DNA of 64,000 bases from Thermodesulfobacteriota bacterium (lineage in GTDB: Bacteria; Desulfobacterota_D; UBA1144; Nemesobacterales; UBA2774). Below the pieces are notes generated by a model. That model saw only the letters and a program-made list of their open reading frames with translations. It was not told the DNA's origin and did no database searches. Shown here one piece after another: positions 14,447 to 36,659 of the stretch. Position 1 is the first letter of the stretch, and the number at the start of each line of letters is the position of its first letter. The position numbers and the translations under genes are program-made. Location: positions 40,191 through 104,190 of the forward strand of contig BQJP01000002.1 of assembly GCA_021604765.1 (NCBI GenBank). The letters are read 5' to 3'.

Positions 14447-14539
14447 TGGCTGGGGCTCTTGGATACACTTCGAACCCCTGCTTATTAGAATTATTTAAGC
14501 ATTTATAATACAATTTTTCAAGAATTAATAAGGTATTAA
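14447..14539 (+). repeat. att-like repeat copy 1 (tRNA-Gln core plus recombinase-tail coding sequence, internal stop)
   Basis: TGGCTGGGGC core identical to the tRNA 3' end at 36573; translates WLGLLDTLRTPAY*NYLSIYNTIFQELIRY*. Confidence 0.85.
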
Positions 14540-14575
14540 GGTGTATTTTTTAGTACTCACATTTGTTATTAGGTC

Positions 14576-17500
14576 CTACCTAATAACATTCACGCTTCCA
14601 TCAATGCTCACCTTAATCTCTTTTGCTCCATTTGGAATATCAGAAAGAGTCGTTGCGCCTCCTGGCCACATCACACTGATCTGACTAGGATTTACAGGAG
14701 ATTTCATTAGCTGAACTGAAGAATCCTGAGACCAGTAGCCTGAGCCTGAGTGTATTTCCCTGGATGGCCCAAAACTATCACCGTTAGAAAGTCTTATTTG
14801 AGCTCCTATCCCCTCTGGATTTTCTTTAGGTCCAGCTAGGCGTATGCGCAGTCCTGGTTCTGCCTTTATATTTTGATAAAGCTTAGTCTGAGCACCATTT
14901 TGAGTAACTGCAAGATCGATTCTTCCATCATTATCAAAATCACCAAAAGCTGAACCTCTGGAATCACCGTAGACTTTAATGCCTGAGTCCTGACCCGGAA
15001 TTGATACTAAGCCGCCCTTTCCATCACCCTTTAAAATTAGCCCTCTTCCTGCATCAATACGAGGTGTTTCGATTTGTGAAGCAAAGAAGTTTTGGGCAAT
15101 AAAAACATCTTCATGACCGTCACCATTGTAATCCGCCACACCTACACCGAACGAAGGAGCAAACTGAGCCTCAATAGGTAAGGAAATCGCCTCAAAATCA
15201 TTTCCCCTATTCAGAAATACCATGTGATCAAGTGTATTTGCAGTAACTACATCTGATTTTTCAACCTCTTCGCCATATATATCTTCGATGCCTGCAGAAC
15301 CGAATTGTTCGTAAGTCTCAATTTTCGTCTTAATAAAAGGCATCGCGTTTGATGAGCATGACAACCCACGCTCGGGCACTATATCGGCCATTGTTTCGTT
15401 ATAATGCGCTTCAACTATATCGAGTGTCCCGTCCTGGTTAAAATCTTTGTAATATATGTATAATGGATGCTCATCGTCTAAATGGTATTTGTGGTTCAAA
15501 CCCCAGTTTGTGGCAACAATATCCATTCTTCCGTCACCGTCGAGGTCCCCTGTAGTAACCCCATTCCACCATCCATTATATTCTGCAAGTCCGAGATTCT
15601 CGGTAGCATCCGTATAATGACCCTTATCATTTTTGAAAACCCTCACTGGTCCCCACTCTGTGGCTAGAACGAGTTCGGGAAATCCATCTCCATTGAGATC
15701 GCTAAATACTGCGCCGCTTACCATCCCTAGCAACTTGAATTTGGCGCTATTATTTAAATCCACTTCGAATTTGCCTTTGGAGTTTATGTATAACATAGAA
15801 GACACGGGCTCTGGATACCTTCCGGGGATAGTGCGTCCACCCACAAAGAGATCAAGGTCGTTGTCTCCGTCAATATCCGCCATGGCAATAGGACCTGTTG
15901 AAGACTCTTTTCCGGGCAGTGCATCCGCAATGTTTATAGATCCTTTTTTGTAATAATAATTTAGTGCTGATGGAGAAGGACTCTTATGGTCCTCAAAATT
16001 AGAAAACCCTATAATTATTGAAGATGAATCCACATCATTACTCCAAGCAACGACTGATGTTTGATCGAGCTTTGTTTCTATATTGCTTTGAGGATCCAGA
16101 GGAGAAAACTCCCCGTTATCATTATTAATATAAATAGAAAGCTTCCCTCCCTTGCCGCTTGATATAATCAGGTCTTCGTTTCCATCTTGATTTAAGTCGT
16201 GCCATGCAATACCGGGTCCCAGCTGGCTCAGCCTGTTCGGGAGTAGTGATTGGAGCTTAAAATCGTCAAACTCTTCTTCGTGGTGTGAGTGATTTATCAG
16301 ATTGCTTACGTCTTCAAAAAAGGGCTCAGCAACAACAGGTTCTATAGGTTTTGAATCCTCAGCGTATTTTTCATCAATCAGATATATATGATTAGGTTTT
16401 ACATTTTCAATAAAACTCTTTTTGCCGCTTCTCCATGTAACCTCGATTGTCATATCATCTTTTGAATCTCCTGTGGCAAATGTAACAACAGGATCTGAGC
16501 TTGAGAGATACTTCCCTCCTGATATAACCTCTTTACTTTGTTCAACAGGGCCGCCCAGAATTTTAACTTGCGCACCAATACCATATGTATTAGGAGAAAG
16601 ACCCTTTAAACGCACCGATACCCTTGGTTGTATGGAATCGTTTCTGTATATGCTCGCTGGGCTTTCAAGATTATTAAGCACTAGGTCGAGATCCCCATCG
16701 TTATCAAGATCGGCGAGAGCAGCGCCGTGGGATATTGCCTTTAAATCCAATCCCCATTCGCTGCTTACTTCCTCAAACCTTAGATCGCCCATATTCCTGT
16801 ATGCCAGGTTCTTAGTTTCAAGTCGCGGGTAAAGCAAAAGCGCCTGCCTCTGAGCCTCTGCATCTTCAAGTTTTAATGATCTAATATGGTTTATAGTATC
16901 GGTATCCTGAACATCCCTAGCATGACCGTTTGTTACAAACAGATCTTCGTAACCGTCCAGATCGATGTCGAAAAAGACTGGCGCCCATGACCATTCTGAA
17001 TCCTCAAGGCCGCTTAAGTTAGCTATCTCAGCGTAGGTGTTATCTCCTCTGTTGAGAAATAACGTGTTACGCATTATCTGCGGACGGTTGTCGATTTCAC
17101 CAATTGATGCCGGCGTTGGCTTCATAGTTCCCATCTGCATTTTCCTGAGCCTGTGGTCACGGCTCAACATATCAACAACAAAAAAATCATAGTCCCCATC
17201 CCGGTCTATATCAGAGACATCAACTCCCATAGAAGTGGCACTAGTATTTCTAAGAGCAACTTTGTCTATTGCTCTAAACTTACCGCTGCCGTCATTAATC
17301 CATACCCTCTCAGGACTCCAGAAATCGTTACATACATAAATATCCGGGTCACCGTCTTTGTCCATATCCTGTAGAATTGCGGAAAGACCCCAGTCTAGAG
17401 GTGGTCCTGATAAATTTTTGCCGTCCTCGTCTACAAATGTGCCGTCTGTCCAGGATAGGGGAGTAAAATTTCCATTCCCGTCGTTGATATAAAGAAAATC

Positions 17501-35434: not shown

Positions 35435-35759
35435 AATATTGTTCTCCTTGCCATTTTTTTGGAAAATTATAGTTTTAAATCCTATTATTTACTGCTGAAT
35501 TATTTACTACCGACTTAACAACTTGAAAAAATTTTAGGTATTTCTTAAGGAAGCTATAAATTATAGCTTTTTCAGCAGAAGCATTTTAAAATAAACGTTA
35601 GTCAGCCTCTATTTATATATTATATTATACATAATAAAGCTTCTATTACAAATCTAATTAATATAGAACGTAAAGATAGTATTATTAGACATCTCTATAC
35701 TGCAAACTAAGTATTTTCGCGATTTAACTATACTTCGTTCTTAATGGGGAGCAGTATAA

Positions 35760-36659
35760 AAACCTCTATCTACCAGCCAAATTCATCATATGATTAAGAA
35801 TCCTTTTTATGGAGAAATGATGATACAAGGGAAATTATACAGTCATCGTTATACTCCTATTATAGACAAGAAAACTTGGGATATTTGTCAATCAATCAGG
35901 ACTGGGAGATCAAGAACAAATGCTCCTAGGCAAACAAAGAAAACTTTCATATTTAAGGGACTAATAAAATGTGCAACTACTGGAAGGATTGTGACGTGTG
36001 ATATTAAGAAAGGAAAGTTCATTTACTTAATAGCACGTAATCCAAAAGATCCTAATAAAAAGGTTTATGTTCCAGAAAAGACTGTTTTAGAAGAGATAAG
36101 AGAAGTATTTAAATCAATAAAAATAGATGACGACATTCTTGAAACTATTACAAAACATTTAAAAAAAAGCCATGAATCGGAAAAAGTTTACCAAAGTAAT
36201 GCCATTAAGGAACTACAAAAAGAAAGTAGTCGAATACAAGTAAAGCTAGATAGGCTTCTTGATCTATTATTAGACAAGAGTATTACTACGGATGACTATG
36301 ACAAAAAGTGGCAGGAATTAAAAACTAGACAATATAATATTAACGACCAAGTTAAAAAACACCTAAAAGCTGATGAGACATTCAAAGTCACTGTAAATAC
36401 AGTCTTTTCGATTGCAAGTATGGCTTATGAACTTTTTGAGAGTTCGAAAATAGAGCAAAAACGTAAACTTATCAATTATGTATTTTCGAACCTTGAGTTA
36501 GAAAGCGCAACCCTCCGGTATTCTTTAAGAAAACCATTCGATTTAATGGTAGATTGCTCCACACGTTCTGGATGGCTGGGGCACAAGGATTCGAACCTTG
36601 ATCTTCGGATCCAGAGACCGACGTACTGCCATTATACTATGCCCCAGTGGAGCATTTAG
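35760..36659 (+). pseudogene. N-terminally truncated large serine recombinase (partial recombinase domain, Zn-ribbon-like region and coiled coil) reading into the tRNA
   Basis: KPLSTSQIHHMIKNPFYG...YTPII, FIFKGLIKC, LLDLLLD.SIT.DDY.KK, KRKLINYVFSNL and LRKPF...WLG; in-frame stop at 35757; no resolvase catalytic domain upstream. Confidence 0.82.
36573..36646 (-). tRNA. tRNA-Gln (anticodon CTG)
   Basis: TGGGGCATAGTATAATGGCAGTACGTCGGTCTCTGGATCCGAAGATCAAGGTTCGAATCCTTGTGCCCCAGCCA: cloverleaf, GTTCGAATC T-loop, encoded CCA. Confidence 0.95.

Follow-up and report, generated by a model that had tools for sequence, protein, structure and literature searches.

Large serine recombinases (LSRs), or serine integrases, are among the main tools of genome engineering, and accounts of where they insert in nature mostly name protein genes or intergenic sites. 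In streptococci, integrative elements and cis-mobilisable elements (CIMEs) accrete in tandem. Four published accounts bear on the locus discussed here. According to the 2014 Islander paper, serine integrases were not known to target tRNA genes (PMC4383910). In phage Mx8, whose integrase is a tyrosine recombinase, the phage attachment site (attP) lies within int, and integration makes a new int 3′ end, reportedly altering the properties of the enzyme (PMC6070905). The SSV-type “suicidal” integrases, tyrosine enzymes reported only from archaea, also have the site within the integrase gene, which is split and inactive on integration (PMC8371274). Lastly, the tycheposon preprint (10.1101/2020.12.28.424599) describes additive islands beside tRNA genes, with an LSR in 27 of 937 elements. 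Here we describe an array of three cassettes beside a tRNA-Gln(CTG) gene, with the relic of an LSR gene, in a 64,000-nt stretch of contig BQJP01000002.1 of a Thermodesulfobacteriota bacterium (assembly GCA_021604765.1). This whole stretch is referred to as the window, and all positions are counted from its first letter.

Positions 14447–36572 are very probably a composite island at tRNA-Gln(CTG), built by repeated site-specific integration through an LSR that belongs to a widespread clade. Four observations carry this conclusion: the anatomy of the locus, its homology to integrases elsewhere, insertion polymorphism among relatives, and the geometry of the attachment (att) sites. The central features are these:

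36573–36646, minus strand: tRNA-Gln(CTG) gene, called by ARAGORN; Rfam tRNA match of 64.9 bits
36573–36582, plus strand: core, the 10-bp identity block at the tRNA, which would hold the crossover; its TGG is both the complement of CCA and the integrase Trp codon
14447–14539, plus strand: repeat 1, core and P′ arm, with the native tail carrying TAG at codon 14; outer attL (B–core–P′)
19608–19703, plus strand: repeat 2, core and P′ arm, with an intact 31-aa tail and stop codon
31880–31981, plus strand: repeat 3, core and P′ arm, with a 33-aa tail and stop codon
35721–36659, plus strand: LSR relic, C-terminal part only; residues 199–496 of protein P0001 align to 35721–36596

The tRNA-Gln gene is the lone tRNA gene in the window, and the B′ half of the attachment site is made up of its 3′ end (CCA, discriminator, acceptor strand and T arm). 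The string TGGCTGGGGC occurs four times on the plus strand, at 14447, 19608, 31880 and 36573, where the chance expectation is 0.05 matches and four were reached in 0 of 100 shuffles. Thus, the repeats and the matching tRNA end that a first-pass annotation of this DNA had reported are confirmed. Each of the three repeats opens with this string; they are ~95 bp long, can be aligned over ~85–95 bp and are 87–89% alike. Are these repeats simply displaced tRNA 3′ fragments, left by an ordinary tyrosine-integrase tRNA island? Such an island would account for the position at a tRNA 3′ end and for direct repeats opening with that end, but not for the rest of the locus. Beyond the 10-bp core, the only letters common to the repeats and the tRNA are GGA and TTCGAACC, the remainder of each repeat being non-tRNA sequence; no tyrosine recombinase is found among the open reading frames (ORFs) of 12000–40500; and the adjoining recombinase relic is of the serine type. 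Instead of the Islander-type pairing of a tyrosine integrase with a displaced tRNA fragment, the locus has a serine relic, with 10 bp and two motifs shared. We regard a tyrosine-integrase origin as exceedingly improbable.

The serine relic itself meets the tRNA at a junction of the attR type (P arm–core–tRNA) at 36573. As first annotated, ORF 35790–36659 passes through the core as W-L-G and ends within the antisense tRNA. Its description as a serine-recombinase ORF holds for the family and not for the length: the 289 aa match the phrog_95 integrase at profile positions 307–558 of 651 (E 1.5e-23), and they are only the C-terminal part. Through this match the relic shows the LSR order of a Recombinase domain followed by a zinc ribbon with an inserted coiled coil. 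At an E-value of 0.001 no Pfam family is found in the 289-aa ORF, and PF07508 stays below threshold (16.4 bits against a cut-off of 21.1) because only the end of that domain is present. The resolvase-type catalytic domain with its nucleophilic serine is absent from the resident copy, and the N-terminal part occurs nowhere in the window. Hence, the resident integrase is a dead fragment lacking a catalytic domain. A 19-nt motif, TACTGCTCCCCATTAAGAA, lies on the minus strand at 35738–35756 and abuts the 5′ end of the relic. It has a single copy in the window and is conserved (up to 54 bp in L054 and L058) beside relics or tails on the unrelated contigs L054, L055, L057 and L058.

What do the relatives of this relic look like? 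Among 1.84 billion representative proteins there are 4669 relatives at E ≤ 0.001, the full-length ones being ~500–545 aa. The catalytic R-V-S (R8 V9 S10) is nearly invariant in 24 full-length homologues, and the Trp encoded by the core TGG (W489) is invariant in 24 of 24. The N-terminal catalytic domain is present in the homologues and in a paralogue on contig C30 of the same assembly (PF00239, E 3.5e-23). In the AlphaFold2 (AF2) model of the homologue P0026 the body has a mean pLDDT of 87.2, with paired long helices at 341–388 and 394–419 and a C-terminal beta-hairpin.

The ends of these relatives explain the repeats. In metagenome relatives the integrase C-terminus is fused in frame to the repeat peptide (...RKPFDLMVDCSTRSEWLGLLNTLRTP...IFQEYGLVG, then stop). 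For example, P0057, which is 71% identical, reads ...LRKPFDLMTNCTTHSEWLGLLDTLRTPAYYNYLSIDNTIFQEYSLLS, and P0057, L054/L058 and L056 share the one-frame reading ...RKPFDLM..(E)WLGLL.TLRTP..YYNYLSID(N)TIFQEY.L..; in L054/L058 and L056 the C-terminus continues through the core into the 31-aa tail in frame, with the stop at ...LVG. The ending ...KPF...WLGLLxTLRT, which the first-pass annotation had expected of full-length homologues, therefore exists in P0057, L054/L058 and L056, though all of these are relics. Public contigs scanned with the 30-nt start of the repeat gave nine metagenome loci and three genome loci. When the 150 best hits were sorted with our own regular expressions, 79 had antisense tRNA after the Trp (W-x4-D-S-N and similar) and 18 had a native tail of the form W-x6-[VILFM]-R-T with 7–32 further residues, 10 of these 18 being full-length (505–546 aa); the other 53 were unclassified, and by eye ~20 of them stop no more than 4 residues past the Trp. 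At the DNA level we checked 27 loci, which come from 16 of 120 genomes belonging to the same phylum; 13 of these loci place the Trp codon at the 3′ end of a tRNA gene in antisense, namely tRNA-Gln in seven, tRNA-His in four, and tRNA-Asn and tRNA-Glu in one each. A tblastn search with P0001 added two phage and three plasmid records, of which three were examined (two human-gut phage scaffolds and a Legionella adelaidensis plasmid); all three overlap a tRNA gene, for tRNA-Glu, tRNA-Leu or tRNA-Asn. The continuous relatives and the two tail classes bear out the proposal that attP lies in the 3′ end of the integrase gene, with a ~31-aa tail exchanged for one encoded by antisense tRNA.

Several further observations concern the clade and its tails. 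Six of the 18 native-type tails end in -AA (P0004, P0026, P0036, P0060, P0108 and P0135; endings ..PAAA, ..SEAA, ..VMAA, ..LRAA, ..KLAA and ..LLAA), and two more end in -VA. Such -AA ends presumably recall ssrA-like degradation tags; tails of the window lineage end ..LVG, unlike them. Relics 74–84% identical to that of the window adjoin tRNA-Asn or tRNA-Glu (L073 in genome G004 and L091 at G003:C117), and this suggests, as far as sequences can tell, that the tRNA target may switch quickly within the clade. An intact-looking sibling island of 15.7 kb lies at tRNA-His on the same assembly's contig C30 (13303–29416; locus L096). Its integrase has an open frame of 518 aa (486 aa from ATG) with Resolvase, Recombinase and Zn_ribbon_recom domains, and it ends W-G-A-stop in antisense tRNA-His. 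The cargo is a Cus-like RND efflux set (OEP, HlyD_D23, AcrB family) and a P-type ATPase. At its attL is an integrase relic of ~100 aa with a native tail, and a 64-bp tandem duplication is found at the relic start.

The geometry of the att sites can be compared at both tRNA-Gln and the C30 tRNA-His:

tRNA-Gln arm: TGGCTGGGGC ACAAGGA TTCGAACC
Repeat arm: TGGCTGGGGC TCTTGGA TACAC TTCGAACC
tRNA-His arm (contig C30): TGGGGT GCGTGACCGGA TTTGAACC
C30 tail arm: TGGGGT CCCTTACCGGA CATAT TCCGAAC

The motif TTCGAACC occupies nt 18–25 of the tRNA arm and nt 23–30 of the repeat arm. At both tRNA genes, in the right half-sites, where the geometry is readable, the element arm equals the host arm with 5 bp added ahead of the T-loop motif. 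In serine integrases the motif contacted by the zinc-ribbon domain (ZD) lies at bp 16–24 of attP and at bp 11–19 of the bacterial site, attB (Rutherford et al. 2013, PMC3783163). Thus, the locus shares the LSR pattern, in which attP and attB are short, have a small block of identity in common and differ in the position of the ZD motif, which is 5 bp further out in attP. With the numbers of PMC3783163, the crossover dinucleotide would be at approximately nt 6–8 of the 10-bp block. It also follows from the offset of the motif that the h-R-T of the native tail is encoded as NTT CGA ACC, in effect the TTCGAACC DNA motif in a shifted reading frame.

How is the same locus organised in related genomes? 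The comparison involves the ancestral flank and three cassettes:

14119–14412, minus strand: ABM-domain gene, which flanks repeat 1
14413–14446, plus strand: ancestral B arm, 34 bp from the start of the ABM-domain gene to the first core
14447–19607: cassette 1, 5.2 kb, with an FG-GAP/ASPIC-UnbV protein and a proprotein-convertase P-domain protein
19608–31879: cassette 2, 12.3 kb, with DUF2254, an endonuclease/exonuclease/phosphatase-family protein, DUF892, CsbD, a histidine kinase and sigma-54 response regulator, two MscS channels and dodecin
31880–36572: cassette 3, 4.7 kb, with a small protein, DUF892, an isochorismatase, an asparagine synthase and the integrase relic

After tRNA-Gln comes queF in 35 of 41 related genomes, and 10 of these 35 loci were fetched, at up to 20 kb each; tRNA-Gln(CTG) is present at 10 of 10. 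Three genomes of the same genus have empty sites, in which the ABM gene is 35, 36 and 163 bp from the tRNA (G014, G015 and G007, respectively). Other sites are filled differently. In G002 a tail copy and one cassette of 1.7 kb stand between the ABM gene and the tRNA, and an integrase is lacking. In G003 the tRNA is followed by an integrase relic, then 5.2 kb, then another tail copy and further sequence, amounting to at least two cassettes. G013 has a tail copy adjoining the ABM gene, plus relics. G010, G011 and G019 have tRNA-Gln with no ABM gene nearby, and the contig of G006 ends 2.8 kb beyond the tRNA. Public sequencing runs X2 and X4, which belong to studies other than that of the source, yield one 109,084-nt contig that carries cassette 3 (31882 to 35744) at ~95% identity; ahead of it stand 7145 unrelated letters and a further tail copy, with homology from 19610 onward; stretches left uncovered in X2, X4 and X6 are not evidence of absence. 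In X2/X4 and in the relatives homology begins at the core, so the junctions lie at the core. This agrees with the earlier expectation that tRNA-Gln loci in relatives would differ module by module, being empty or differently filled, and the island in the window is an insertion. In the same two runs, a 44.6-kb contig matches window positions 36533–36579 (the P arm and the first 7 core nt) and then departs, continuing with an ATCGAA motif at tRNA-type spacing; the 30 letters do not fold as a T arm by eye. This departure may mark a different target site, or it may be an artefact of assembly.

The repeats are confined to this locus. In the assembly to which the window belongs (3.42 Mb, 173 contigs), strong matches to the repeat are limited to the three window sites; a scatter of copies across the genome, which the first-pass annotation had named as a way to be wrong, was not seen. 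A profile search finds two weak, diverged tail-like copies on contig C6, on the minus strand at ~49627 and ~42978. Their sequences are FWLGLVDTLRTPDNYQLLDNFTN and IGGIVDTLRTPDLYTLLPNFTN, and they have other cores, TGGCTCGGG and TGGCGGGAT. Neither adjoins a tRNA, the sole tRNA gene of that contig being tRNA-Asn at 9628–9703, and they may be relics of other islands. In the ORF domain scan the window cassettes carry ordinary genes of the cell envelope and of stress responses; genes for phage functions or conjugation are absent. These elements are cargo islands rather than prophages. The kinase/sigma-54 regulator pair of cassette 2 (25620–28332) has 40–58% identical counterparts near tRNA-Gln in G013 and G019 (L050 12562–15245; L052 12927–15632). 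In G013 the pair lies outside the ABM gene, so the cargo is not necessarily all foreign to the neighbourhood.

From this pattern we infer the order of events, as well as any activity of the array and any function of the tail swap. The attB site would be the CCA/acceptor/T-loop end of tRNA genes, and attP would lie inside the last ~100 bp of the integrase gene. Crossover would take place within TGGCTGGGGC, whose TGG doubles as the CCA complement and the integrase Trp codon. In the free element, the gene would run past the Trp into the native 31-aa tail encoded by the P′ arm. In the integrated element, it would run into antisense tRNA, and the P′ arm with its orphaned tail would be left at the far end of the element. 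The three repeats would thus be P′ arms: copy 1 the outer attL beside the ancestral flank, and copies 2 and 3 inner junctions at which the integrase relic of the previous element meets the tail of the next. New elements would enter on the tRNA side, and the distal copy would be the oldest; the copy farthest from the tRNA is indeed the one with a nonsense codon, as first annotated. The resident integrase has lost its catalytic half and the inner relics have shrunk to ~80 decayed bp, leaving an array that would now be mobile only with an intact integrase supplied in trans. In short, the array looks like tandem accretion with decay.

The first-pass annotation saw no recognisable integrase before copies 2 and 3, and this is contradicted by the sequence preceding each of them, here called the X arm:

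19523–19607, plus strand: X arm of repeat 2, a decayed integrase mini-relic, recognisable only over approximately the last 45 bp
31795–31879, plus strand: X arm of repeat 3, a decayed integrase mini-relic
36273–36282, plus strand: recurrent 5′ boundary of integrase relics in other genomes, codons S-I-T-T-D-D-Y-D

An X arm of ~80 bp is shared by repeats 2 and 3 of the window, G002, G006 (beside the tRNA), G003, L055, L059 and L060/61, and the best-kept one reads ...ITTDEYDRKCQELKT-SFFTVCLKT-W. It consists of the first ~51 bp of the integrase segment (36278–36328 in the window), ~27 bp and the core. X arms are therefore integrase relics, and every cassette ends in one. The point at which relics begin is itself conserved. 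In 14 of 18 partial matches the relic starts at query position 161–165, the others starting at 184, 189, 201 and 212; loci with the shared start include L071–L091, L054 and L060. Among 16 contexts only one pair (L054/L091) has upstream DNA in common, and the relic of the C30 tRNA-His paralogue starts at the homologous ATTACT. In the AF2 model of a homologue, the shared start lies in the loop at the coiled-coil tip. A common start of this kind is not expected from random decay. The options are erosion to a constrained segment, a second site-specific event, or the spread of one integrase-less lineage, and the last of these would favour mobilisation in trans.

Several points weigh against repeated integration as set out above. 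First, the same kind of mini-relic stands at both inner junctions, which simple independent decay does not predict. Second, an intact integrase of the tRNA-Gln lineage with a native tail was not found in these searches, the close copies all being relics of 133–139 aa. Third, no circular or excised form was seen in the contig-level runs, and viral contigs gave 0 matches to the 30-nt tail pattern. Fourth, comparison of the P arm and the X arm with the reverse-complemented P′ arm reveals no left–right half-site symmetry by eye (5–6 of 20 matches, the chance level). Fifth, canonical LSRs are not known to carry out recombination between attP and attR, and insertion at a site already occupied would therefore need extra tolerance. 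Finally, the window comes from a metagenome assembly, and the Logan contigs listed for its probable source run, X1, end at 19637 and 31909, inside two of the repeats; hence the cassette order hangs on the original assembly.

Another possibility, the stronger reading in the first-pass annotation, is that non-autonomous cassettes, each bounded by a mini-relic arm, core and tail arm, are inserted and excised in trans by an intact integrase encoded elsewhere, as in an integron-like serine-recombinase locus. We consider this less likely than not, and as to the origin of the array it is compatible with tandem accretion. The shared relic boundary stands beside tRNA-Gln, -Asn or -Glu or beside a tail, in several genera and families and with unrelated upstream DNA, and X-type arms accompany different cargo in G002, G003, G006, L055, L059 and L060/61 and twice in the window. 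Integrase-free single cassettes exist (1.7 kb in G002, 1.15 kb in L055), and the X2/X4 strain has a different cassette between junctions of the same kinds. Yet neither a circle junction, nor excision polymorphism of a single cassette, nor an intact tRNA-Gln-type integrase is found in the genomes searched. Both window X arms are heavily decayed, and the X arm differs from the integrase P arm across the 25 bp that an LSR half-site needs. Moreover, homologous recombination between the ~170-bp junction repeats would give the same pattern. Nor does the locus have the parts of an integron: there is no IntI among the ORFs, no attI and no cassette promoter (Pc), and in place of the bulged attC hairpin the junction folds are weak (z −0.2 to −3.2) and have no Rfam match. 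The array is not an integron.

Could the repeats have no role in recombination at all? Each lies directly downstream of a minus-strand gene, and the minus strand folds into a 7–10-bp hairpin followed by CCA, with z-scores of −1.5, −2.7 and −3.2, and such genes might thus end in a structured RNA, terminator or tRNA-like minihelix. This is very improbable. The tRNA is alone among the Rfam matches in 13000–38000, the U run expected after a terminator hairpin is absent, and the hairpin is not retained in the C30 or C6 versions. The repeats are limited to the tRNA-Gln locus, and relatives read the same sequence as the C-terminus of an integrase. As an observation in its own right, the P′ arm has a 9-bp inverted repeat (CTGGGGCTC ... 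GAACCCCAG) at 14447–14480, 19608–19641 and 31880–31913, minus strand, so that a minus-strand RNA would end in a hairpin and CCA, resembling an acceptor/T-arm minihelix.

Is the tail a protein? The translations of the repeats given in the first-pass annotation are exact to the letter, including the TAG at codon 14 of copy 1, and the synonymous differences that it listed (cct/cca, tat/tac, agc/agt, att/ata, gaa/gag) are present. Its suggestion of protein-level selection stands in part. In a set of 12 distinct tail copies, the ratio of nonsynonymous to synonymous polymorphism (pN/pS) over codons 11–25 is 0.31 in frame, whereas the two remaining frames give 1.51 and 2.08. Of the 16 columns at each codon position, 6, 8 and 14 vary at positions 1, 2 and 3, respectively, and 10 of the 12 copies retain a stop codon at position 32 or 34 of the tail. 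This set omits L057, whose tail ends after 30 nt, and the first 30 nt are fixed by the search pattern. Despite low DNA identity, the pattern DTLRTPxxYxLLxNFTN persists in the diverged copies on C6. Thus, the tail appears to have been under protein-level selection within the window lineage. The h-R-T part does not belong to this signal, its conservation being attributable to the DNA-level att motif.

An alternative is that the tail has no protein role, the repeats being kept as att half-site DNA and by recent descent, with an incidental frame. The identity of h-R-T with NTT CGA ACC, the TTCGAACC motif read out of frame, fits this, as do the arbitrary tRNA-encoded tails, from 2 to ~30 aa, borne by integrated copies. 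So do two results on the distal tail, which is unlike the tails of distant homologues: a profile of the post-RT parts of 16 distant native tails scores the window, C6 and C30 tails no better than 2000 shuffles, and the AF2 tail of P0026 is a low-confidence helix whose pLDDT of 68 falls to 39, so that any protein function of the tail is putative. The pairs in the pN/pS count are also not independent. Family-wide protein similarity of the distal tail is accordingly not claimed. Against these points stand the low ratio in the tail frame alone, the bias of the variable columns, the retained stop position and the peptide held by the C6 copies. In addition, ~95 bp are conserved, and an LSR half-site requires ~25 bp. 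On balance, we consider it improbable that the frame is incidental.

What might follow if these threads are drawn together? One speculative joint reading, to which we give little weight, is a clade that targets the CCA/acceptor/T-loop end of tRNA genes, in which the tail would report the free or integrated state of the element and relic-ended cassettes would be moved in trans into integron-like arrays. In this joint reading the tail would be a switch of activity, stability or direction, and relics would start at the coiled-coil tip.

What are the implications of tRNA targeting by this clade? First, tRNA genes are treated as the domain of tyrosine integrases (PMC4383910), and standard accounts of tRNA islands leave such a clade out. 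In the open-access literature, supplements and subscription journals being outside the scope of this search, we found no report of a clade of serine integrases that acts at the 3′ ends of tRNA genes; the word tRNA occurs 0 times in the Durrant preprint. Second, the clade ranges from Thermodesulfobacteriota to Legionella plasmids and gut phage scaffolds, and its islands may escape programs that look for tyrosine integrases together with tRNA fragments. Third, it illustrates the rule that attP equals attB plus 5 bp on a conserved, nearly universal target. Fourth, the tail swap is a natural experiment on the effect of a C-terminal extension in a serine integrase. Fifth, the shared relic breakpoint suggests a constraint or process in the decay or spread of islands that is not yet understood.

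The array combines features of several described systems. As in integrons, gene cassettes with or without promoters, separated by recombination sites, form a one-sided array; the cassettes here differ in being multi-gene, up to 12 kb long and equipped with integrase relics. At the level of structure, the locus has the CIME-like arrangement of att-bounded units without a functional recombinase, in tandem. Accreted islands and tycheposons likewise have tandem units on the tRNA side, att-type repeats and the newest unit next to the tRNA, and the inner units of accreted arrays lack a working integrase, as here. Those systems are mainly of the tyrosine type, and an att site inside the integrase gene is not part of their description as far as the accessible texts go. 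With Mx8 the locus shares a crossover inside the integrase gene that changes the C-terminus; the Mx8 enzyme is a tyrosine recombinase, whereas the one here is a serine enzyme in which any functional effect of the swap is putative. The likeness to SSV-type elements is looser: there the gene is split in two, whereas only the last ~31 codons are exchanged here and the body of the enzyme stays intact. In mechanism the system resembles the LSRs of phiC31, Bxb1 and Listeria A118/LI, which have the same Resolvase, Recombinase and zinc-ribbon-with-coiled-coil domains, and LSRs likewise use short att sites with a small identity block and an attP whose distal motif lies 5 bp outward (PMC3783163). The window copy differs from them in having no catalytic domain, and the clade as a whole differs in targeting tRNA 3′ ends, with the crossover in its own coding end at an invariant Trp.

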